A DNA stretch of 64,000 nt, from the NCBI GenBank assembly GCA_963823555.1, contig CAWGMA010000003.1, positions 128,001-192,000 of the forward strand. The letters run 5' to 3'. Source of the DNA: Candidatus Eiseniibacteriota bacterium (GTDB taxonomy: Bacteria > Eisenbacteria > RBG-16-71-46 > CAVPCR01). Below, piece by piece: positions 39,777-51,661 of this stretch. Every line of letters starts with the position of its first letter. Positions within the stretch are counted from its first letter, which is position 1. The position numbers and the translations under genes are program-made. The notes below the pieces were generated by a model. It had not been told where the DNA came from and made no database searches. It saw only the letters and a program-made list of their open reading frames with translations.

Positions 39777-42700
39777 TTACTGCAGCAACACCATCTTGCG
39801 GACAGCCGCCCGGTCCGGCGTGACGAGCTTGTAGAGGTAGATCCCGCTCGCCACCGGCGCACCGCGCTCGTCCCGTCCGTCCCAGGCCACGACGTGGGTG
39901 CCGCCGGCGAGCTGGCCGCTGACCAGGCTGCGAACGGCCCGCCCCGCCACATCGAAGATGGTGAGCGCGACCGGCGCTTCCGATTCGAGCGTGAAGCGAA
40001 TCGTCGTCGCCGGGTTGAATGGATTGGGCGCGTTCTGATCGAGGCCGAAGCGGAACTCGGCGCTTGCCTCGGAGCCGATACCCGTGGGACCCGCGTTCAC
40101 GGGAACTCTGAGACTCGCGGCTCCACCCCAGGCCCCACCCTGGTCCTTGGCGCGCACCCACAGGGTCACGAAGTCCTCGCCGAAGGTTCCCGCTGGAATC
40201 TCCGCCATGACGCCGACCGTGATCGTGCCGAAGTCACCGGTCATGGCCGTGCCGGTGCCGGCCGGGGCGGGGTTGAGGCCGGCCGACCACTCGGCAGCGA
40301 GGATGTTGGAGCCCCCCGTGTTCGCGTCGGTCACGGTGGCCGCGAGGGATGTCGCCTCGCTGGCCCGGATGGGCAGCGGATCGACCGCGATCGAGCCCGC
40401 CACCACCACCGGTCCGGTCAGATCGCCGCCCGGGAGATGGAGCGTGAGATCTCCGTTCGAGTCATCGCGCCCGCGGAGAGAGGGCGATCCGTTGTCGGTG
40501 ATGGCGACTCGGATCCGGTAGCGGGTGCCGTTGGGGAAGCCCGCCGGATTCCAGGAGTAGGGCGGCGGGCCCGGAGCCGCCGCGACCAGGTTCCACGACT
40601 CGCCTCCGTTCGAGCTGACGTGGATGGTCCGCGATGCGACCGTGAATCCGGCGGCCGCCGATTCGGTCCAGGAGATGGCCACCGGGCCGCTCGTGATCAC
40701 CTCGCCCCCGTCCGGCCCCGTCACGGTGACATCCGGATGATCGTGGCCGATGAGCCAGATCAGGGTCCGGTCGAGGATGTCCGCTCGCGCCTCGTCATCG
40801 GGGACAACGGCATTCAGATGCGCCCACTCGTAGAAGTTGGTGGAGATCTTCGTCGGCTGCCCACCCCACACGGCACTACCGGGATCACCCGCAGGCATTG
40901 CGCCTGTGAAACGAATGGCAATGTCATCGGGAGAGGTGTCGTTGTTCCGCCAGCTGGCCAGCGCGGTGCCGCCGACCGGGTTGGGGTTGATCTCGTCGCC
41001 GGCGGCCCCCGAACGGTGCGGCGTGTAAGGAATGCCTGCGGTGTAGGTGCCGCTGATCGGGTCGCCGGCGATGCCGAGGACCGAGCTCCAGGTCGCCGGG
41101 TCGGCCTGCCAGATGGCCTTGAGCTCGGTCTCGAACCAGGCCTTTCGCGCCGGGGAGTAGTCGGGAGAGCTCGGTTCCGAGAAATCCCAGGCCACATCGT
41201 GGGAGAAGATGGCCCAGCGGGCTCCGCCGGCGTTCAGGGCGGTGAGCGTGTCACGCGCGGCATCGGTGATCACCGGGTACTGCTCGAGGCCCGGCTGCCA
41301 GACGACGGCCTTGAAGGAGCGCAGTCCGGAATCGAGATTGCCCAGGCGCGGCGGGCTGGCGAGAGCTCCCTCCCAGATCGCGTGGGCCCACCCGCGGGAC
41401 GAGAGCGCCGTCTCGTAATAGCCCCTCTTGTCGAAGGAGCTGTCGGTGATGACCACGAGAACATCGCGTCGCGAATCGGTCGTGAAGCGGTAATGGACTC
41501 CCCCCGCGTCGTCGCGCACGCCGTTCCCCTGATGATCCACGGATTCGACGTCGAAGTAATAGGTCTGGTTCGTTGCGAGCCCGGTGATCGTGACCGCGTG
41601 CGTGGTGACCAGGGCCGGCTCGAGCTCGGTCTCGGCGCCGAGGAGCGGCGTCGTCCCGTAGTAGACCCTCGAGCTCGCGGGCGTTGAGGTGAGCCACGTG
41701 ATGGTGGCTCCATCCTGGCTCTGGTTGCCGGCGTGCACTGCGGTGATCACAGGACCCAGGAGATTGACCGTGGCGCGGGCCGCGATTGGATTCGGGTCGA
41801 GGTAGGTCACGGTGATCTCGTCGCCATTCGACACCTGGATGCGACCGTCCGCCGCCGGAGCGGCGAGGGAAATCGGGATCGCGCCGGTGAAGATGCCGTC
41901 CCCCCCGTCGAGGCTCACCACTTCCGGCGTCGACTCGGTGGTGGAGCTGACGCTCACGGTCAGCGGCAGCGCTGCATCCGGGTCGGTGACGCGGATGGCC
42001 ACCGTGTCCTCGGCGCCGTAGGCGGCCTGATTCAGCTCGACCACGGCGAGGCCGCTCGCCAGCCCACCGGTGACCACCAGCGCGAAAGGCTGCGGGCCGA
42101 AGGGAACGTTCGCGGCCTCCACCCTGAGGATCCACGTGCCCGCGGATGGCAGGTTGCGCTGGACGCACTCCTCGACGTTGATGGCGTCGGCGGTCCCGCC
42201 GGTCGACGACTGGCCGGCGGCATAGAAGTTGCCGCGGTAGACCGCTCCACCCGGCTCGGTGGCGATGAGGTCGAGGTTGTTGACCAGGTTGATCGCCGCG
42301 GCCGGCGTCGAGGGGTAGTCGGTCCAGACCAGGGTCGCCTCGATCGGCTGCGTCGCGTCGGTGACCTCGACCGCGAATTCGACATACTCGCCGGTGAGAA
42401 GGCCGGTCGTGAAGTCCACGAGCGCCGTCCGCCGGGTGTCACCGGCGAAGTAGAGCACGTTGTCGGTGAGCACGCGGCCCCAGCCGATGCGATTGGAGGG
42501 GATCGAGTAGCCGCTGACCGAATTGTCCCCGGAGTTGACCACCATGGCCTTGAGCAAGGCCGCCGACGGCGTGAAGCCGTTGGCCGGCACCTTGGCGCCG
42601 GTCGGGTACCAGCCCTCGGTCAAGTACTGGCGCATCAGCGCGGCGGCGCCCGCCATGGCCGGCGTCGCCATGCTGGTGCCGGAGAGCGAGGCATAGGAGG

Positions 42701-44216
42701 CGTCCCCGCTGAAGAAGGCGCTCGAGACCGCGACCGCCGGTGCGCAGACGGTCGGCTTCAGTCGGCCGTCGTCCGCCGGGCCCCCCGAGGTCGAGCTGTA
42801 GATGGTGTTGGCCGCCGTGCCGTTGCCGGTTCCGCCGGCCGATACGCAGTTCTTGGCGGTTGCCGGGCTTCCCACTGTCCCCGTGCCGCCCGAGTTGCCG
42901 TCGGCGAAGAAGGGGAGGAAGTCGGGGTGCTCCCACATGAACTGGTCGACCGTCATGGCCTGGAAGTCGTAGTCGCCGGCAGCGGCTGATCTGCTCCACG
43001 AGTTCGACATGATGCGCGCCCCGCCCGCGGCATTCCCGGTGTAGGGGAGGACGAGGAGATCGTTGAGGTCGATCGGCACGTAGATCGCGACCGGGTCGCT
43101 GCCACCGCCATCGCAGAAGTAGAGCTGCGCCGCGGGCGCCATGCCGTCGCGGAGATCGGTGGCGAACGGTGAGTCGTCCCCGGCGACGGTGCAACCGGTG
43201 TGGGTGCCGTGTCCGCTCTCGTCGCCGAAGAGGATGCGCGGATCCTCGTTCGTCTTCACATAGGCCACGAGCTTGCGATGATCCGGGTACTGGCCGTAGC
43301 CGGTGATGGAGATCACGGGATCGCGGAACTGATTGTGCGTGGTGCGGATCCCCGAGTCGGCCGTCGAGACCATCTGGCCCTCGCCGCGGATGCCGAGGTC
43401 CCAGATGCGGCGGTCCGAGCTGACCCAGGTCTGCACCACCCACTGCGCGTTCGAGTTGACGATGCGGTTCGGGTGCCAGGGCTCGATCCATGCCACCGCC
43501 GTCTCCCGCGCCAGGTCGGGTAGGATGTCGCTTCCGGCCTGGAAGCGGATGAGCTGGTTCCGCCCGCGCGAGCGCTCGACGACGTTGCCGCCGAGGGTGG
43601 CGATGCGCGCGGCGATGATGTCGGCGGGTTCGCCGTCGAACACCTGGAGGACGTAGCTGTCCCCCCGGCGGCCGGGCGCCATCTCGGGAGCGGCCGCCAG
43701 CTTGTAGGCCGGGTGGTAGGCGCCGGTCCACTCGACTCGGGGCATGCGCGCGATGGTCTCGCGCGCGCCGGCGGGAAGGCGGACCAGGAAGGCGTCGTGC
43801 GGGAGATAGGCATGGATGCGGCCGCCGAGGGATTCGAGATCAGCCTTCCATTCGGCCTCGATCGGGCCGGCGAACTGGACGATGAAGTATCCCGCCGCGT
43901 CGGATCCGGGGTCGCCGCGGAGGGCATCCGGAAGAGGGGGCTCGCCCATGCGGGTGTCGAAGCGGATACCGCTGGCAAGGGTGATCATGGTCCGGTCGGC
44001 TACGGGATCGGGCTGGGTCCGCCCGCGACGGATCACCGAGATCCGGTCCCCGTGGCCGCCGGGCTTGCTCTCCATCCTCGAGGTGAAGGCGGGGCCTGGC
44101 GTGTTCGCCACCCGGTTGGCGCTTTCTCCGGACAGGGCATGAAAGGCGATCGCGAATGCCGCCAGGGCCACGCAACCGAGGAAACGCAGAGAGCGATCCA
44201 GTGTCGGGCGATGCAT
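39777..44216 (-). CDS. Large secreted S8 subtilase (KP-43-like) with jelly-roll, FN3/Ig domains and FlgD-Ig/T9SS-type CTD (about 1479 aa)
   Basis: Triad ADSG / GHGTHTG / SGTSMATP; 'PATAKNCVSAG'; 'LVWTDYP..LVNNLDL'; CTD 'QNAPNPFNPATTIRF..IFDVAGRAVRSL..WDGRD..ASGIYLYKL..RKMVLLQ'; GAGG before ATG 44216. Confidence 0.94.
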   Translation of the reverse strand: MHRPTLDRSLRFLGCVALAAFAIAFHALSGESANRVANTPGPAFTSRMESKPGGHGDRISVIRRGRTQPDPVADRTMITLASGIRFDTRMGEPPLPDALRGDPGSDAAGYFIVQFAGPIEAEWKADLESLGGRIHAYLPHDAFLVRLPAGARETIARMPRVEWTGAYHPAYKLAAAPEMAPGRRGDSYVLQVFDGEPADIIAARIATLGGNVVERSRGRNQLIRFQAGSDILPDLARETAVAWIEPWHPNRIVNSNAQWVVQTWVSSDRRIWDLGIRGEGQMVSTADSGIRTTHNQFRDPVISITGYGQYPDHRKLVAYVKTNEDPRILFGDESGHGTHTGCTVAGDDSPFATDLRDGMAPAAQLYFCDGGGSDPVAIYVPIDLNDLLVLPYTGNAAGGARIMSNSWSRSAAAGDYDFQAMTVDQFMWEHPDFLPFFADGNSGGTGTVGSPATAKNCVSAGGTGNGTAANTIYSSTSGGPADDGRLKPTVCAPAVAVSSAFFSGDASYASLSGTSMATPAMAGAAALMRQYLTEGWYPTGAKVPANGFTPSAALLKAMVVNSGDNSVSGYSIPSNRIGWGRVLTDNVLYFAGDTRRTALVDFTTGLLTGEYVEFAVEVTDATQPIEATLVWTDYPSTPAAAINLVNNLDLIATEPGGAVYRGNFYAAGQSSTGGTADAINVEECVQRNLPSAGTWILRVEAANVPFGPQPFALVVTGGLASGLAVVELNQAAYGAEDTVAIRVTDPDAALPLTVSVSSTTESTPEVVSLDGGDGIFTGAIPISLAAPAADGRIQVSNGDEITVTYLDPNPIAARATVNLLGPVITAVHAGNQSQDGATITWLTSTPASSRVYYGTTPLLGAETELEPALVTTHAVTITGLATNQTYYFDVESVDHQGNGVRDDAGGVHYRFTTDSRRDVLVVITDSSFDKRGYYETALSSRGWAHAIWEGALASPPRLGNLDSGLRSFKAVVWQPGLEQYPVITDAARDTLTALNAGGARWAIFSHDVAWDFSEPSSPDYSPARKAWFETELKAIWQADPATWSSVLGIAGDPISGTYTAGIPYTPHRSGAAGDEINPNPVGGTALASWRNNDTSPDDIAIRFTGAMPAGDPGSAVWGGQPTKISTNFYEWAHLNAVVPDDEARADILDRTLIWLIGHDHPDVTVTGPDGGEVITSGPVAISWTESAAAGFTVASRTIHVSSNGGESWNLVAAAPGPPPYSWNPAGFPNGTRYRIRVAITDNGSPSLRGRDDSNGDLTLHLPGGDLTGPVVVAGSIAVDPLPIRASEATSLAATVTDANTGGSNILAAEWSAGLNPAPAGTGTAMTGDFGTITVGVMAEIPAGTFGEDFVTLWVRAKDQGGAWGGAASLRVPVNAGPTGIGSEASAEFRFGLDQNAPNPFNPATTIRFTLESEAPVALTIFDVAGRAVRSLVSGQLAGGTHVVAWDGRDERGAPVASGIYLYKLVTPDRAAVRKMVLLQ

Positions 44217-44419
44217 GAATACCTCTTCCGCTGGCAACGGGGGTCGGGGGTGCCGGATCCATCCGGCCCCGGGGGCTTCTGGGGCGTCTGGGCTGCCCCT
44301 TCCTGGCGGTAGCAGTGGATCATAGCCGAGCCCCCGCCGGGGAGCCAGTGGCAGGTCGGCAGCCGCCGCACCATCCGTTGCGCTATGCTCCAGCGAGATC
44401 GGTCCCGGTCGAGAAAGTG

Positions 44420-46972
44420 ATGAAGGCAAGGGGCTTTCGGGGTTCGGGCTTTCTCCTGGCAGTTCTGGCGGCAGCCATGCTGCCCGCCGCCATGGCGCGC
44501 GCGGCCGGTCCGCCCTTGAAGCCGGCGCCGGTTCTCACGATCGAGCGGGCCACACGTCAGGAGATGCCCACCCGCACCTTCGACGTGCACCATCTGAAGC
44601 TCGAGCTCGCGCTGGATCCGGAGGCCGGGCGGATCTCCGGCGAGGCGACCCTGACCCTGAGCCCGCTCAGCGGTTCGATCACCGAGGTCCCGCTTCATGC
44701 CGCGGACCTGGCCATTGAAGCCGCCTGGATCGAACGGGAAGGGACCATCGACAGCGCGGGCACCGCAGTCGAACCCGGGCTCCTGCGCGTCGCCCTGCCG
44801 CGAAGCGCCGCCCCCGGGGAGACGCTCCGGGTGCGGGTGCGCTACACCGCGCATCCTGCGACCGGTCTCACCTTCGTCGCCGCCGATCCCGCCGGCGGCC
44901 GCTCGCTCCAGATATGGAGCCAGGGTGAAGCCGAGGAGAATCGCTTCTGGTATCCGGCGTGGGACTACCCCAATGACCGGGCGACGAGCGAGCTCGTGGT
45001 CACGGTGCCGGAAGGCCTCACCGCGGTCGGCAACGGCCTCCTGGTCGCCCGGCGCGAAAACCCAGATCGCACCGTGACGTTTCACTGGCGCGAGGACCAT
45101 CCCCACGTCAACTACCTGTTCTCCCTCGCCGTGGGCGATTTCGTCCGGCTGCCGGCGCAGGCCGGCGAGGTTCCGCTCGAGGTCTATGTCGAGCGCGGGC
45201 TCGAACCGCTCGCCGAGCGGAGCTTCGGCCACACCGCCGATATGGTGCAGACGTTCGCCCGGGCTTTCGCTCATCCCTATCCGTTCGAGAAGTACGCCCA
45301 GGTCACGGTGCGCGACTTTGCCTACTGGGGCATGGAGAACGTGAGCGCCACGACGCTGATGGAGCGGACCCTGCACGATGAGGCCGCGCACCTCACGTAC
45401 ACCTCGGACGACCTCGTGGCGCATGAGCTGGCGCATTCCTGGTTCGGCAACATGATCACCTGCCGGAGCTGGAGCCAGCTCTGGCTCAACGAGGGTTTTG
45501 CGACCTACGCCGAGGCGATCTACTACGAGGCCCGGTGGGGAGAGGAGGGCCTGGTCGACCGCCTGCTGAATGACCGCGAGAACTACCTCGAGGAGTACGA
45601 GGAGGACTACCGGCGGGCCATCGTCACCGATGTCTTCGTCGAACCGGTGGACCTCTTGGATGCCCACACCTACAGCAAGGCAGCTCTGGTCTTGCACATG
45701 CTGCGGAAAGAGCTCGGCGAGGAGGTGTTCTGGACGGCGCTCCACCGCTATGTCGCCGCCTTTGCCTGGAGGGAAGTCGAGACATCCGATCTGCGTAGGA
45801 TCTGCGAGGAAGTGTCGGGGCGCGATCTCGGCGTGTTCTTCGACCAGTGGCTCTACCGCAGCGGCCACCCTGTGCTCGCGGCGAGCTGGTCCTGGGACCG
45901 CGAGCTCGGGCAGGTCGAAATCGAGATCGAGCAGACTCAGGGAGTCGACGATTCGCCGTTGTTCTTCGACACGGCGCTCGACATCCGCATCGTGACGGCG
46001 GTTCCGGACGCCGGCCGGCCGGAGGTCGTGGACCATCGCGTGCGCCTCCGGGGCGCGCGGGAGACGTTCCATTTTCCGGCGGCGGCGCGTCCCAGCTTCG
46101 TCCAGCTCGATCCGGCCGGCTGGCTCCTCGCCGAGATCGACTTCCAGAAGCCGGCCGCCGAGTGGGCGCTCGAGCTGGCCAGCACCACGGAGGTTCTGGG
46201 GCGCGTGGCGGCGGTTCGCGCGCTCGGTGCATTCCCCGGAGACACGACGGCGCTCGCCGCGCTCGCCCGTGCCCTGCGCGAGGACACCTCGCGGCACGTG
46301 CGCGCCCGGGCCGCGGCCAGTCTCGGCGAGCTCGGCACCGAATCGGCGCTCGACACGCTGGCCAGCGGACTGGCCGATCCCGATGCGCGTGTCCGCCTGG
46401 CCGTGGCCACGGCGCTCGGCGAATTCGCCTCGGCGCGCGCGGCGGACCGCCTGCTCGATCTCATCGACCGCGATCCGAGTCCGTATGTGGTCGGCGCCGC
46501 CGCCGAGGCGCTGGGTGCCACCGGGGATGTACGGGCGCACCAGCGTCTCTTGCATCTCCGGCAGCGGAGCGCCCACGCCGACGAGATCGCGCGTGGCGCC
46601 TACGCCGGCCTTGCCGCCCTCGAGGATGAGGCCGTGCTGCCGGATCTCATGCGCGGCACAGGCGAGGACATACCGGGTGAGGCCCGGCGCGCGGCGATCC
46701 TTGGGCTCGGCACCCTGGCATCTGAGTTGCCCGAGCGACGACCGGAGATCCAGGCGCGGCTCGTGGGGCTTCTCGACGCGCCGTTGCTCGACACCCGGCT
46801 CGCCGCGATCGAGGCCATGGGGGAGAGCGGGGATCCGGGTGCCCTGCCGGTGTTGAGCCAGCTTGGACGGAGCGCGTGCGGGGAGTTAGTGCGAGCGACG
46901 GCACGGCATGCTGCCTGGCACGTCGCCCATGCCGAGGATTCAGCCGGCAAGACCGCGGACAAGGAGGATTGA
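44420..46972 (+). CDS. Exported M1-family aminopeptidase with C-terminal HEAT repeats
   Basis: Signal peptide; (W)GMEN; HELAHSW-x-NEG zinc motif; YSKA; repeats such as '[17 protein letters not shown]'. Confidence 0.93.
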
Positions 46973-46974
46973 TC

Positions 46975-47112
46975 ATGATCATGACCACGACGCCGACCAT
47001 CGAGGGCAAGCGCATCGCCGACTACAAGGGAGTGGTGACGGGCGAAGCGATCCTCGGCGCCAACGGCAGCATGCTCATGGTGAGCGTGAGCGGCACCGCC
47101 GTCGTCATCTAG
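46975..47112 (+). pseudogene. ybjQ: YbjQ/UPF0145 gene with an in-frame internal deletion (45 aa)
   Basis: AAGGAGG RBS; the N-terminal '[30 protein letters not shown]' is fused directly to the C-terminal '[15 protein letters not shown]'; the family's central part (about 60 aa) is absent. Confidence 0.8.
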
Positions 47113-47714
47113 CGCACGGTGAAGGTGGCGCTCGAACCACCGAGCGGCACCGTCGTCGACCCGCCGTTGACGCCCGTGGCGCTGGCGACGCGGAGGGATG
47201 AGGTCCCGGTGGCCGCGTTGCTGGCGACCTCGACCGTGGCGGTGACCACGATCCCGTCGCCGGGCGGGATCTCGGATGTGCCATTCAGGTCCACGAGGAT
47301 CACGCGGGCCAATCCGCCCGCGATCTCGTTCACCTGAGCGTCGAAGTCCGCGGCGCGGGCGCCGGCGCCGGCCGCGGTCACGCTCAGAAGGGCGGCGTCA
47401 TAGCCGAGGTCGAATTGCAGCCCGGTGAGCGAGCTCGTGTTCTCGAGCCGGAAGCTCACCGTGACGGCGGCTCCTGGCGCCCCGGCGGCATCATCGATGC
47501 GAAGGACGTTCGTCAGGTCGGGGGTGAAGGGTGGCGGCCCGTTGCCATCGTCGTCATCACCCCCGCCGCAGCCGGCAAGGAGAATGAAGGAGAGAACCGC
47601 CGTGGCAAGAGCGCACCGGCGCAGCGAGGGTATCGATCGGACGCTCATCGTGGCTGCCAAGGGTTGTCCTCCTCCTTGCGGTGTGCTCGCCGGGTGATCG
47701 GCCGTGTTGCTCAT
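47109..47714 (-). CDS. Lipoprotein with a single cohesin domain
   Basis: Lipobox LLAG-C, then GGGDDDDG and a Pro linker. Cohesin-type sequence '[35 protein letters not shown]...[27 protein letters not shown]'. Start is ATG 47714 (coupled to the protease stop) or TTG 47660/ATG 47648 after AAGGAGGAGG. Confidence 0.82.
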
Positions 47715-50593
47715 CGCACCACCGTGAGCCGCGCGGTTGCACTCTCACCGCCGGCCGTCACGCGTGCCCAGTAGACTCCTGCCGGCAGCGGCCGTCCCCT
47801 GGACCCGCGGCCGTCCCAGACGATCTCATGCCGGCCTGGCGCGCGCGTATCATCGGCCGGCATGGCCACCAGCCGTCCCGACACATCATAGATTCCCACG
47901 GTAACGCGCCGATTTTCCCTGCCTGGCACCTCGATGGCGATACGGGCGGGACCGGCAAAGGGATTCTGCGTGGCCGCCCATATCCGTAGCGACGCCGGTG
48001 CGCCGCCGCCCGCCGGATCCGGAATGGGGGCGCCGAAGGAGACGGTCCCGGCGACGTGCTCGCCACCCGGACCGACGAGGTCGAGGCGCAGCGGGCGCCA
48101 GGCCGCCGTCTCGGCTCCCGCGGCCGCGACGAAGGGCAGGTTGATGACGGGGTTCCCGCCGCTCAGCGAATGCCCGTCGGCGGCGAGCGCCATGAGGCGT
48201 GTGGTCCCCTCGGCATCGCGCGGCGAGCCGAGGGCGAGAACGCCGCTCCGCGCGCCGCGCACCGCGGCGGCGAGTGGTGTCAGGGTGCCTCCTGGCGCCG
48301 GCGCCAGGTCGAGCTCGAGCCCCGACACGGGAGCAGCCGCCTGGATCGTGATCGGGAGGATCCATGTCACCGCGCCGACCGGCGGCACGGGTGGGTTCGC
48401 GAACGCACCGGCCGCCATGATGGCGCGGATCACCAGGACCACGTCACCGACATCGATGATCTCGTCACGGTTCATGTCCGTGCGATCACGCTCCTCGGGG
48501 GTCGGCTGCTGGACCTCCAGGACATAGTCGAGGGCGAGGAGCGCATCGGTGATTTCGAGGACGCCGTTGCCATCGATGTCGCCGGCGATGGTGGTGTCGG
48601 ATGCGGCGGCGTTCGCGGCGGCGAGGACATCGAGCTTCCCGTACCCCCATAGAGCGTTGGGCAAGAGACCCGTGAAGGCATCGGAACGAGCGGTGGTGGT
48701 CAAGGCGCGCTTCAGATCGACGATGTCCCAGTCGGGATGGAGCTCCAGGAGCAGGGCCACGGCTCCAGTGACATGCGGCGCGGCCTGGCTCGTGCCTTGC
48801 TGGATGGCATAGCGGTCGCCGGCGAGGAGGAACATGTTGGGGAACTGCGGAAACGGCGAGGCAAAGCTCGATGACGGCGACGTCGGCGGAGCATCGACGG
48901 AGAAGCAGGAGGCAATCTCCATCCCCGGTGCGCAGAGCTCCGGCTTGATTCTCCCGTCGCGCGTCGGCCCGGCGTTGGAGAAGGGTGCGATCGCGCCGAA
49001 GGCGGCGTTGGGTAGGCCGAGGGTGCGCAGGTCGAAGTGGTTGCCGTCCTTGTCATCCCATTCGATCTTGGTCGTATGGGCGCCGACGGTGATGGCGTTG
49101 CGCGCCGTGCCCGGCTCCGAAACGAAGCCGGTGGAACTGGCGAAGCTGCCGAAGGCGGTGGCGGCTCCGGGCAGGGTCGGCTCGAAGGTGCTGATGGAGA
49201 TGTAGGCATCGAAGGGGCCGGCGCCGTTCTCGAGGCGGATCCGCCAGCTGCCGGGCACGGGCTGGGCGCCGGGGATATCGATGACCAGGATGTTGGCCTC
49301 GAAGTCGCCGTTGGCCGGGTTGGCGCCCGCTCCGACGTTCTGGACCAGGATCAGACCGTCCTCGCTGAAGGTGCCGCTCGGAGCGTTCGACTCACCGGGA
49401 GCGAACGGGCCGACGGCCAGTCCGTTGGGCGTGATGACCGTGATCGAGAATCCGGCGAAGGTCTCGTACCAGAGGTTGATGAGCACGAAGTCGTTCTGCA
49501 CGCCGGACGCCGGTACGTAATCCGGGATCGTGAAGCGGAGATCGTTGACTCCGCTCACGTAGTCCGAGGCGGCATGCTGCGCCGGCAGGCTGCGCTCGTT
49601 GCCGGCCGCCGCGACGATGGCCTTTCCCGGCCTGCCGCTGCCCACCAGGTTGTCGATCGCCACCTCCTGCAGCGCCGAGCCGTCGTGGGCCCCGAAATGG
49701 CCGCCGAAGCTCAGATTGGTCACGTAGGGCTGGCCGAGCTCGGCGGCCTTCTGATCGATGAAGGAGAGGGCGTTGACGACATCGGCCTCGCTCAGGCCCC
49801 CCGAGCCCGCGCGATCGCCGTTGACGATGATGAGATCGGCGCCGGGCGCGACCCCTCTCATGCCCGACATGACGCGGCCGCCACCGGCGGCGCTGCCGGC
49901 GACATGGGTGCCGTGGCCGACGACATCGCGCGCTGTGGCGCCCTGATCGATCTGGGCGGCGGTGAGGAGCGTGCCGCCGAAGGGGCCGTTGCCCGGCACG
50001 CTCAGGTCGAGCAGGAACTTGATGCGGGTCGTGCCGTCGGGATTCTGGAAGTCGGGATGCTCGGTATCGATGCCGGTGTCGATGACACCAACGATCACGC
50101 CCTCTCCGGTTGCTCCGTACTCCGACCACACGCCGGGGGCGCCCGTGTCGGGAACGCTCAGGTCGTTCATGAGGCGCATCCGGCCGGCGGCCTGGACGCG
50201 TTCGACCACCGGCAGTCGGGCGATGTCGTCAACAAGAGCGAGGGGCACCGCGCGCGCCGTGGCCACTTCGCCGATGACCGTATCGATCTCGAGGCCGAGC
50301 GCCGATAACGACGTCACATCACCGCCTGCGACGGCAAGGAGGAGATCGGCGACCGGAACCCCGGCCAGGAGTCGGGCCCCGAGCGCCGACGCAGCCGGGC
50401 TCAGCATGGGCGCGCCCCGGCCCGGGCTCGCGGCGGCTTCATAGAGCGGCTCGGCGGCCAGGGCGAGCAGGGGCTGGACCTTGCGTCCCTCCTCGGGCGA
50501 GAGCGAAGGAGCCGCCACCGCGGACGTTGCCGAGATGAGAAGTGCGGCGACCAGCAACCCGGACCGTCGGGAGACCCTTATCGCGTTCATCAT
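47711..50593 (-). CDS. Secreted S8 subtilase with dockerin, cohesin-like module and FlgD-Ig/T9SS-type CTD
   Basis: Triad VIDTG / GHGTHVAG / QGTSQAAPH; duplicated Ca-loop-helix GDIDGNGVLEITDALLAL and DMNRDEIIDVGDVVLVI (about 48416-48583); CTD 'NPFAGP..IYDVSGRLV..WDGRG..AGVYWARV..RLTVVR'. Confidence 0.92.
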   Translation of the reverse strand: MMNAIRVSRRSGLLVAALLISATSAVAAPSLSPEEGRKVQPLLALAAEPLYEAAASPGRGAPMLSPAASALGARLLAGVPVADLLLAVAGGDVTSLSALGLEIDTVIGEVATARAVPLALVDDIARLPVVERVQAAGRMRLMNDLSVPDTGAPGVWSEYGATGEGVIVGVIDTGIDTEHPDFQNPDGTTRIKFLLDLSVPGNGPFGGTLLTAAQIDQGATARDVVGHGTHVAGSAAGGGRVMSGMRGVAPGADLIIVNGDRAGSGGLSEADVVNALSFIDQKAAELGQPYVTNLSFGGHFGAHDGSALQEVAIDNLVGSGRPGKAIVAAAGNERSLPAQHAASDYVSGVNDLRFTIPDYVPASGVQNDFVLINLWYETFAGFSITVITPNGLAVGPFAPGESNAPSGTFSEDGLILVQNVGAGANPANGDFEANILVIDIPGAQPVPGSWRIRLENGAGPFDAYISISTFEPTLPGAATAFGSFASSTGFVSEPGTARNAITVGAHTTKIEWDDKDGNHFDLRTLGLPNAAFGAIAPFSNAGPTRDGRIKPELCAPGMEIASCFSVDAPPTSPSSSFASPFPQFPNMFLLAGDRYAIQQGTSQAAPHVTGAVALLLELHPDWDIVDLKRALTTTARSDAFTGLLPNALWGYGKLDVLAAANAAASDTTIAGDIDGNGVLEITDALLALDYVLEVQQPTPEERDRTDMNRDEIIDVGDVVLVIRAIMAAGAFANPPVPPVGAVTWILPITIQAAAPVSGLELDLAPAPGGTLTPLAAAVRGARSGVLALGSPRDAEGTTRLMALAADGHSLSGGNPVINLPFVAAAGAETAAWRPLRLDLVGPGGEHVAGTVSFGAPIPDPAGGGAPASLRIWAATQNPFAGPARIAIEVPGRENRRVTVGIYDVSGRLVAMPADDTRAPGRHEIVWDGRGSRGRPLPAGVYWARVTAGGESATARLTVVR

Positions 50594-50624
50594 GAAGTGC
50601 CCCTTCAGAGCGTGATGGTCGTTG

Positions 50625-50993
50625 TCACTTGATCTGCATCTGGCGAGCAGGCTCGATCTGGATCACCTCGTCCAGCGCGGCGATCTCGGCCAGCGAGCGC
50701 GGCTGGATCCAGCCGGTGAGGACGTCGCCGACAACCGTGTCGACGCGCATCCCCCTCGACTCGAGGAAGGGGCTGGAAGCCGCTTCATCGACCCGGACGA
50801 GCACCGAGAGAAGCGAGTCCCCTTTTCCTTCGCTCAGGAGCTGGGAGGCGGTGCGGCGCAGCTCGGGATCGACCTTGGCCGCAGCAGGGCCGGGAAGGTC
50901 GAGCGTTTCCTGACCATGGGAACCGCATCCAGCCAGAACAGCGAGGGCCAGGACGCTGAAGAGGGCAGGGCGGAGAGAGGTTGAGTGGCGCAT
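50625..50993 (-). CDS. Lipoprotein consisting of a stand-alone subtilase propeptide-like (I9-like) domain, 122 aa
   Basis: ATG 50993, lipobox VLAG-C; the mature part aligns by eye to the propeptide of the adjacent S8 (LESRGMRVDTVVGDVLT vs LSALGLEIDTVIGEVAT). Confidence 0.8.
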   Translation of the reverse strand: MRHSTSLRPALFSVLALAVLAGCGSHGQETLDLPGPAAAKVDPELRRTASQLLSEGKGDSLLSVLVRVDEAASSPFLESRGMRVDTVVGDVLTGWIQPRSLAEIAALDEVIQIEPARQMQIK

Positions 50994-51124: not shown

Positions 51125-51661
51125 CTAGCTGCGAGCGAGCGGGATGAACCCCTTGGGATAGCGCCGGGCCAGATCGACGTAGGTCTTCTTGAAGTGGAGC
51201 CACTCGGCCTTGTAACGCTCGTCGACCGTCTTCTCGAGGATCCTGGCTGGAACGCCGACCGCGATCTGTCCGGGCGGGATCTCCTGGCGCTGGCGCACGA
51301 CACAGCCCTCGCCGACGACCGCCCAGGTCCCGAGAACGGTCCAGTCGCTCACGACCGCGCCCATGCCGATGACGACATAATCCTCGATGCGCAGGGCGTT
51401 GTGGATGATCGAGCCGTGTCCGACGGTGACCCAGTTTCCGATCGTGCACACCTCACCCGGCCGGGCGTGGATGACGCAGTTGTCCTCGATGCTGGTGAAG
51501 TCGCCGATGTGGATCGTGCCGTAGTCGCCGCGGATGCGGGCGCCGGGGCCGATCCAGCAGCCGCGGCCGATCACGACATCCCCGAAGACATCGGCCGATG
51601 GATGAATGTAGGTCGCTTCGCCGATCGTCGGCGTCTTGCCCTCGAAGCTGGCAACGCTCAT
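51125..51661 (-). CDS. Gamma-carbonic-anhydrase-family hexapeptide-repeat protein
   Basis: YIHPSADVFGDV, RGD, IEDNCVIH, VGHGSIIH and IGMGA; GGAGG before ATG 51661. Confidence 0.92.
   Translation of the reverse strand: MSVASFEGKTPTIGEATYIHPSADVFGDVVIGRGCWIGPGARIRGDYGTIHIGDFTSIEDNCVIHARPGEVCTIGNWVTVGHGSIIHNALRIEDYVVIGMGAVVSDWTVLGTWAVVGEGCVVRQRQEIPPGQIAVGVPARILEKTVDERYKAEWLHFKKTYVDLARRYPKGFIPLARS

Follow-up and report, generated by a model that had tools for sequence, protein, structure and literature searches.

Introduction

Cohesin-dockerin pairs are widespread outside cellulosomes, and their roles there are mostly guessed. Non-cellulosomal peptidase complexes have been proposed in silico for the 'planctosome' (PMC6461901) and for the cellulosome-like complex of Ca. 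Stygibacter (PMC8542988). According to the available parts of these papers, in both, as at the locus described here, secreted peptidases of a diderm bacterium would be assembled through cohesin-dockerin pairs, and Stygibacter has an S8 peptidase with a dockerin and a CTD-bearing scaffoldin. Clostridial type I cohesin-dockerin pairs share their folds with the domains of our operon. In C. lentocellum, the adjacent single-cohesin and dockerin genes ClcC/ClcD form a minimal pair whose binding was shown (PMC13487519), and anchoring by a cell-bound cohesin has been proposed for the S8 double-dockerin protein Clo1313_0689 of C. thermocellum (reviewed in PMC12484212). These clostridial pairs belong to monoderm hosts and a cellulase context, and the available text on them describes neither a lipid anchor nor a T9SS tail; the words 'lipoprotein' and 'Gram-negative' are absent from the text of PMC11557425.

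Two further systems resemble single components. In the KLIKK/potempin system of Tannerella forsythia, especially in PotC-mirolase, a small lipoprotein gene lies directly upstream of a T9SS-secreted S8 protease, and potempins, lipoprotein inhibitors whose genes precede those of T9SS peptidases, can lie exposed on the cell surface and inhibit with nM Ki; the accessible sections describe no cohesin or dockerin (PMC9890683). The clostridial Csp subtilases CspB/CspA/CspC (4i0w; PMC3567191), described in the text available as spore germination proteases, offer the closest solved sequence and fold, including a large catalytic-domain insert.

Here we analysed a 64,000-nucleotide window from a Candidatus Eiseniibacteriota genome, containing an operon of three genes. 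Unlike the planctosome and Stygibacter complexes, as far as their available text goes, its enzyme itself carries a dockerin-cohesin-fold-CTD tail, the partner encoded with it is a lipoprotein with one cohesin, and the operon has a prodomain lipoprotein in addition. Judged by sequence, the operon appears to be a variant of peptidase display by cohesin-dockerin pairs outside cellulosomes; its layout resembles that of potempins, but the fold of its candidate inhibitor differs. We found no description of this three-gene layout in the literature, where the Stygibacter and ANME supplementary domain tables may hold similar architectures. Our preferred reading, which we consider on balance probable, is that an exported CspB-like subtilase is held at the surface through its dockerin, which would bind the gene 3 cohesin in a Ca-dependent manner, and that its active site is re-blocked by gene 1. 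The display question is directly testable, because enzyme, candidate anchor and candidate inhibitor are encoded together and are of a size that can be expressed.

Organization of the operon

The three ORFs are co-oriented (Table 1), with a 31-bp gap between genes 1 and 2 and an ATGA overlap between the ORFs of genes 2 and 3. An initial annotation had described this arrangement and read the genes as a propeptide-like lipoprotein, an intact S8 protease with a two-repeat dockerin and a T9SS-like CTD, and a single-cohesin lipoprotein. The ORF layout and all of these domain assignments stood up to profile, alignment and fold comparison. The ATGA overlap as the working junction is doubtful, since gene 3 probably starts downstream, and a cohesin-fold domain of the protease, here called X, had been overlooked. 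The annotation's further proposal, in which the lipid-anchored cohesin captures the secreted protease at the cell surface and a co-encoded inhibitor or chaperone controls it, is supported in part by the comparative data. The annotation had also named four profiles expected at the locus, of which Cohesin, Dockerin_1 and Peptidase_S8 matched and Inhibitor_I9 did not.

Table 1. Positions of the operon features in the window
Feature	Position	Strand	Evidence
Gene 1, 122-aa lipoprotein, stand-alone S8 prodomain copy	50625..50993	-	BLASTP, HHalign
Gene 1 lipobox LAGC (Cys23)	50925..50936	-	Sequence; homologue conservation
Gene 2, 960-aa CspB-like S8 protease	47711..50593	-	Pfam, alignment, structure model
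Prodomain (about residues 28-142)	50168..50512	-	Alignment, model; boundaries inferred
S8 catalytic domain (about 143-664), insert about 340-490	48602..50167	-	Match to CspB 4i0w
Two-repeat dockerin (670-725)	48419..48586	-	Pfam; fold match 2ccl_B
Cohesin-fold domain X (738-856), between dockerin and CTD	48026..48382	-	HHalign, fold matches
C-terminal sorting domain (about 870-960)	47711..47986	-	FlgD_ig; PorU fold match
Gene 3, single-cohesin lipoprotein (201 aa from first ATG)	47109..47714	-	Pfam Cohesin 49.9 bits
Gene 3 cohesin domain, about	47112-47504	-	Pfam
Gene 3 lipobox LAGC	47568-47579	-	Sequence

The start of gene 3 is probably TTG 47660, which lies behind AGGAGGAGG, or ATG 47648; no motif like AGGAGGAGG stands ahead of the overlapping ATG, and both gene 3 orthologues carry Shine-Dalgarno-like motifs ahead of downstream starts. 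A search for sigma-70-type promoter and terminator patterns gave none, a weak test at 70% GC. Small shares of the sequencing runs gave short identical pieces in two DNA runs and, in one RNA library, a 228-nt identical piece over the dockerin, which is no proof of transcription. The locus departs from a cellulosome proper in that gene 3 has a single cohesin and the passenger is a peptidase, and Pfam matched no CBM or glycoside hydrolase on the operon proteins or the related scaffolds scanned.

The CspB-like protease

Gene 2 encodes, in order, a signal peptide, a prodomain, a catalytic domain with a jelly-roll insert, a dockerin, domain X and a FlgD/T9SS-type CTD, with Pfam scores of 155.8 bits for Peptidase_S8, 28.6 bits for Dockerin_1 (cut-off 22.9) and 35.1 bits for FlgD_ig. 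Its best solved relative was CspB 4i0w (phmmer E=1.4e-32), onto which the model superposed with a VIA Z of 33.0 and an rmsd of 2.9 over 436 residues (146-664), jelly-roll insert included; the dockerin-X-CTD tail lies beyond the end of this match at residue 664. The triad D172/H227/S602 and the oxyanion N332 were invariant in all ten aligned homologues; the protease is intact by sequence. The family f1 protease has Gln, not Met, after the catalytic Ser.

Both Ca-loop patterns of the dockerin are intact (D672-D674-N676-E680-D683 and D706-N708-D710-D714-D717), and its fold matched 2ccl_B with Z 10.9 and rmsd 2.0 over 62 residues. The CTD matched the C-terminal region of PorU (6za2) with Z 9.7 and rmsd 1.9 over 80 residues, and TIGR04183 scored below its cut-off (17.8 vs 23). 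Gene 2 thus carries both the signal peptide and the C-terminal sorting domain by which we recognized T9SS cargo. A protein database region search with residues 660-870 returned just one further homologue, and a contig scan with the protease alignment returned mostly generic S8s, and none of the 79 loci among the matches listed scored with the cohesin or dockerin HMMs.

Domain X aligned with free cohesins at an HHalign value of 70.8%, against about 1% or lower for controls, and its fold matched 2w1n (Z 10.5), 2vo8 (Z 10.1) and 6kgc (Z 8.8). It mostly retains the Q/E of the cohesin G-x-Q motif, which we take to lie on the binding face. The AF2 model of dockerin plus X reached a pTM of 0.73 and a pLDDT of 87.7; X may occupy the dockerin, because this pTM exceeds our own estimate for freely moving domains (about 0.55-0.6). 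Foldseek on dockerin plus X gave no match at E<=0.001, although dockerins and cohesins headed its list. The modelling suggests that X could cap the dockerin in cis as a rival partner. Carried further, dockerin and X would be a permanent pair that makes a rigid stalk in front of the CTD, the CTD/PorU route would anchor or release the protease, and the neighbouring cohesin would bind something else or exchange weakly. The cohesin fold of X, its motif and the model all fit this account, as does the occurrence of the dockerin-X tail in 145 of 206 genomes of the phylum, often without a cohesin gene nearby. We nevertheless judge it unlikely in view of the comparative data below.

The cohesin lipoprotein and its linkage to dockerins

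The gene 3 cohesin scored far above the Pfam cut-off of 24.1, and the top solved matches of its sequence profile were the type I cohesins 1g1k and 2vn5 (E about 4e-11). Gene 3 is likely the surface tether of the gene 2 protease. One point against this is that the acidic stretch after Cys49, which resembles the surface-export signals of Bacteroidota, is absent from G002.

The same gene order, which the initial annotation had proposed looking for in relatives, was present in the two remaining family genomes: in G001 (protease identity 67%) and in G002 (56%), where the locus falls on two contigs and the cohesin gene immediately follows the protease tail. Gene 1 also lay upstream of gene 2 in all three metagenome loci. 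A purely positional association of the three genes, with no functional connection, seems very improbable to us. The exact triplet occurs in only three genomes, which are close kin, as that account would allow; it leaves unexplained that gene 1 is homologous to the gene 2 prodomain, that three protease clades show cohesin linkage, and that the triplet is constant while the downstream flanking genes vary among G000, G001 and G002. A chance neighbourhood is unlikely also because the 4.6-Mb source genome has two cohesin and two dockerin Pfam matches, the top cohesin match lying ~1 kb from a dockerin match.

A Pfam cohesin was encoded within 5 kb of 9/10 dockerin-tailed S8 genes vs 1/47 other S8 genes, several contigs being short and the no-dockerin label being verified by lineage HMM for 14 of the 47. 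In the one positive among the other S8 genes, protease and cohesin share a single ORF; the dockerin-tailed gene without a nearby cohesin is that of G002, whose locus is split. Fisher's p of 1e-8 overstates the case, because the linked S8 genes are kin from about three clades. The dockerin-tailed S8s fall into three supported groups, and a cohesin neighbour occurs in every one of them; a single clade was rejected (p-AU 0.022).

With a cohesin profile built from the neighbours of dockerin-tailed genes, a separate protein of 1-4 cohesins was found to flank the passenger in all ten further strong-hit loci (S8, 8; M6 peptidase, 3; BNR protein, 1). Two points count against trans capture here: the profile comes from these neighbours themselves, and of 20 loci hand-picked for long contigs, 10 had no separate cohesin gene. 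Apparent anchors on the cohesin partners were a lipobox (family f1, G033, G042 and G044) or a CTD (G023), and in 15 loci the partner had a C-terminal domain and stood beside a TPR lipoprotein, an anchor-like arrangement. Lone dockerin-X-CTD proteins had a cohesin-like domain fused directly upstream of the dockerin (profile 96.4%; 11 of 14 scored higher than any of 280 shuffles); in contrast, the partnered non-S8 dockerin-X-CTD proteins lacked it (7.7%; 0/7). Permanent pairing with X explains neither this extra domain on lone tails, nor the linkage, nor the multi-cohesin scaffolds. Across the class, cohesin genes are linked to dockerin-bearing peptidases, in support of capture by the partner cohesin, and these sequence comparisons favour trans capture over cis capping by X.

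The prodomain lipoprotein

Gene 1 matched residues 96-141 of gene 2 (BLASTP E=7e-4) and aligned with the protease's own prodomain at 97.8-98.1% in HHalign (E about 1e-13), its C-terminus falling where the propeptide would be cleaved. Cys23 is conserved in 12 of 13 homologues, the 13th being N-terminally truncated. Pfam assigned no family to gene 1, and its profile had no significant match in a PDB sequence search; CspB_prodomain was weakly matched in 5 of the 13 homologues (best E 0.061), and an Atlas lead pointed from gene 1 to a CspB_prodomain cluster (0.89). By alignment, gene 1 is a homologue of the subtilase prodomain, whereas potempins are described in the available text as OB-fold or eight-stranded beta-barrels (PMC9890683). 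Homology and analogy together make it likely an inhibitor of the linked protease. Prodomain-derived lipoproteins also occur in KSB1 and Bacteroidota genomes and upstream of dockerin-less Csp-like proteases. The three-part layout is therefore a family-level combination of two modules, as the prodomain lipoprotein is separate and more widespread. A G023 match to gene 1 was discounted, as it covers the signal peptide only; the G023 protease is preceded by a two-domain prodomain-like lipoprotein (weak).

Proposed secretion and display

PorZ is the known lipid-attachment factor for T9SS cargo. Among the T9SS components searched (PorU, SprA, PorV, PorZ and GldM), the source genome encodes PorU (above cut-off), SprA and several PorV copies. 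The PorZ profile matched none of 41 genomes, and GldM gave no match, nor did its controls give a signal.

In our preferred reading of trans capture at the surface, the protease would pass through Sec export and then CTD-directed type IX-like secretion with PorU cleavage, as the presence of PorU, SprA and PorV suggests, and would autoprocess near M142, as subtilase biology leads one to expect. Its dockerin would be captured by the lipid-anchored gene 3 cohesin, consistent with gene linkage and the fused-or-split pattern, with X as a constant brace or placeholder. Membrane-bound gene 1 would then inhibit the protease through its free C-terminus, given prodomain homology and the potempin precedent. 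Against this, CTD and PorU could anchor the protease without any cohesin.

A different division of labour would keep both lipoproteins facing the periplasm, where the cohesin would retain the zymogen via the dockerin, with the prodomain copy serving as a trans folding chaperone or safety catch until secretion; there would then be no surface display. Lipoprotein topology is not readable from sequence, prodomain lipoproteins precede dockerin-less proteases as well, and the CspB prodomain is described in the available text as an intramolecular chaperone that stays bound (PMC3567191), all of which suits such a maturation station. We regard it as quite improbable: the gene 2 protease keeps a full prodomain of its own, and in other families the cohesin partners have up to 4 cohesins or their own CTD and serve M6 and BNR passengers, which an outer scaffold fits better.

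If surface capture is true, it would add a protein-protein anchoring route for T9SS cargo in a diderm lineage without detected PorZ, and a family of prodomain-derived lipoprotein inhibitors; larger versions in relatives would form cellulosome-like protease clusters. More tentatively, and as something we hold possible rather than probable, the phylum may have a type IX-like system that lacks PorZ and whose selected cargoes, those with a dockerin-cohesin-fold-CTD tail, sit on cohesin scaffolds that are lipid-anchored or tethered by a lipoprotein, making proteolytic cellulosome analogues (S8, M6 and BNR; up to 4 cohesins), with the operon as a minimal, self-inhibited one-enzyme form. Cohesin tethering is not a general anchoring route, because only a handful of the at least 150 CTD proteins in the source genome carry a dockerin. 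A second cohesin lipoprotein of this genome is encoded upstream of a giant dockerin-X-CTD protein.

Operon organization and conservation

The layout proposed in the initial annotation was borne out in the window sequence: three co-oriented ORFs, with a 31-bp gap between genes 1 and 2 and an ATGA overlap between genes 2 and 3. Pfam likewise recovered Peptidase_S8, Dockerin_1 and FlgD_ig in gene 2 and Cohesin in gene 3, each over cut-off, and gave no family for gene 1; a LAGC lipobox was present in both gene 1 and gene 3. Gene 3 probably starts at one of the two downstream codons listed below rather than at the overlapping ATG. The TTG begins seven bases downstream of AGGAGGAGG, no similar motif was found ahead of the overlapping ATG, and in each of the two orthologues a convincing start codon likewise lies further downstream.

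Coordinates of the operon and of related features (window positions unless a contig of the source genome, G000, is named)
Feature	Position	Strand	Remark
Hexapeptide-repeat gene	51125-51652	-	directly upstream, same strand, in 3/3 family genomes
Gene 1, lipoprotein	50625-50993	-	
Gene 2, S8 protease	47711-50593	-	960 aa
Gene 2 residue 603	48785-48787	-	follows catalytic Ser
Gene 3, cohesin lipoprotein	47109-47714	-	
Gene 3 candidate start TTG	47660	-	
Gene 3 candidate start ATG	47648	-	
Second S8-CTD protein (1550 aa)	within 39777-46972	-	adjoins operon; neighbourhood not the same in G001 and G002
M1 aminopeptidase with HEAT repeats	within 39777-46972	+	as preceding row
Second cohesin lipoprotein and giant PKD-repeat protein	G000:C3:247478-255599	+	outside window; lipoprotein directly upstream
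PKD protein	G000:C1:1022476-1026174		cohesin-like domain fused ahead of dockerin-X-CTD
823-aa cohesin-CTD protein, then smaller one	G000:C2:214055-217485		

The triplet, whose synteny had been put forward as a check, recurred in both remaining family genomes (G001 and G002), and genes 1 and 2 were adjacent in 3/3 metagenome contigs, each of which stops short of gene 3. Across 41 genomes, a Pfam cohesin lay within 5 kb of 9/10 dockerin-tailed S8 genes versus 1/47 others, a statistic inflated by kinship. The tenth locus was split over contigs, with a cohesin straight after the tail, and the sole exception among the 47 carried its cohesin within the same ORF. We regard it as very improbable that the three genes are unrelated neighbours. 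Quick trees divided the tailed proteases into three supported groups, and placing 12 of these proteases in a single group was rejected (p-AU 0.022), the tested group being defined by the trait and the first tree already seen.

Domain X and the dockerin tail of gene 2

The closest solved relative of gene 2 was CspB (phmmer E=1.4e-32; VIA Z 33.0 over 436 residues), and the triad and oxyanion residues were invariant across 10 homologues. Residue 603, usually Met, was Gln in the family f1 orthologues and in P0016. The dockerin kept both Ca-loop patterns; in predicted models its fold was close to that of the type I dockerin from C. thermocellum (Z 10.9, rmsd 2.0), and residues 879-960 matched the PorU C-terminal region (Z 9.7).

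The S8, dockerin and C-terminal sorting domain (CTD) called initially stood, and a cohesin-fold domain between the latter two (X, residues 738-856) had been overlooked. X matched free cohesins at 70.8% in HHalign (controls: insert 0.2%, CTD 1.1%). The model of residues 663-862 (pLDDT 87.7, pTM 0.73) matched cohesins 2w1n, 2vo8, 2o4e and 6kgc (Z 8.8-10.5), and its pTM suggests that dockerin and X may pack in a defined way. Such packing would suit a dockerin permanently paired in cis with X, which we consider rather unlikely alongside the linkage to separate cohesins. The dockerin-X tail was present in 145/206 phylum genomes.

From the survey of this tail, 20 further loci were hand-picked for long contigs. 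In 10/10 loci of families f13, f15 and f16, separate proteins of 1-4 cohesins adjoined the dockerin-X-CTD passengers, which were S8 (8), M6 (3) and BNR (1); in the 10 loci of f9, f10, f12 and f18, no separate cohesin protein was found within about 7 kb. Lone tails had a cohesin-like domain immediately ahead of the dockerin (profile 96.4%; 11/14 over best shuffle), whereas partnered non-S8 passengers did not (7.7%; 0/7). The recurring unit is therefore a cohesin plus a dockerin-X-CTD tail, either in one protein or in two, and X is its constant part. The free cohesin would take the place of the fused domain, and X would have a structural role. Four operons combined a multi-cohesin scaffold with two different dockerin-X-CTD passengers, an S8 paired with an M6, a BNR or a protein lacking annotation (L231 in G044, L232 in G046, L233 in G041, L054 in G038), and are candidate multi-enzyme proteolytic complexes.

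Gene 1 and the proposed mechanism

The propeptide-like nature ascribed to gene 1 was upheld, its sequence being homologous to the protease's own prodomain. Its C-terminus aligned with the propeptide end, with Ile-Lys at this position in 11/13 homologues. Because the CspB prodomain remains bound and occludes the active site, according to excerpts of PMC3567191, a free lipid-anchored copy is, by analogy, a plausible inhibitor. Similar stand-alone lipoproteins preceded Csp-like proteases at seven f10 loci, in two KSB1 genomes and in one Chitinophagales genome (L063, L064, L065, L193-L196, L199-L201), and no cohesin scored at the KSB1 and Chitinophagales loci; the prodomain lipoprotein is a module of its own. 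At L065 the pair occurred twice in tandem, and G023 and G070 encoded a longer, two-domain lipoprotein.

FlgD-type tails numbered at least 150 in the source genome, which also encoded SprA, a PorU scoring over the NCBIfam cut-off and several copies of PorV. PorZ, which delivers A-LPS to PorU (PMC8545088, in part), gave no profile match in 41 class genomes, with a positive Bacteroides control. A periplasmic maturation station seems unlikely; we lean towards a mechanism in which the cohesin lipoprotein would capture the protease at the cell surface and the prodomain copy would inhibit it.

In the sections consulted, the proposed planctosome (PMC6461901) and Ca. Stygibacter complex (PMC8542988) resemble the predicted working of the present operon, and the potempin system (PMC9890683) shares its gene layout. 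By fold, gene 1 falls outside the potempins. The operon does not qualify as a cellulosome proper. Excerpts of other reports describe binding of adjacent single cohesin and dockerin gene products in C. lentocellum (PMC13487519), a proposed surface-anchored dockerin-bearing S8 in C. thermocellum (PMC12484212) and scaffoldin-like proteins in ANME archaea (PMC9012536). Searches of the openly accessible literature (Peer et al. 2009 excepted) yielded no description of the dockerin-X-CTD tail, of lipoprotein cohesins in this lineage or of prodomain lipoproteins.

Apparent anchors of cohesin partners

The apparent anchor of the cohesin partner varied among a lipobox, a CTD and a C-terminal domain beside a TPR lipoprotein. 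At 15 loci (L050-L055 except L052, and L230-L239), multi-cohesin scaffolds ended in a conserved ~85-aa domain without Pfam match, followed by a TPR lipoprotein; both were absent where the cohesin protein was a plain lipoprotein or had a CTD. The two are possibly an undescribed anchoring pair. At L063, the KSB1 protease was followed by the same kind of TPR lipoprotein. Elsewhere in the source genome, the giant PKD-repeat protein ended in dockerin-like, cohesin-like and CTD domains, and the pairing of 823-aa and smaller cohesin-CTD proteins seems to be shared with further genomes of the class.
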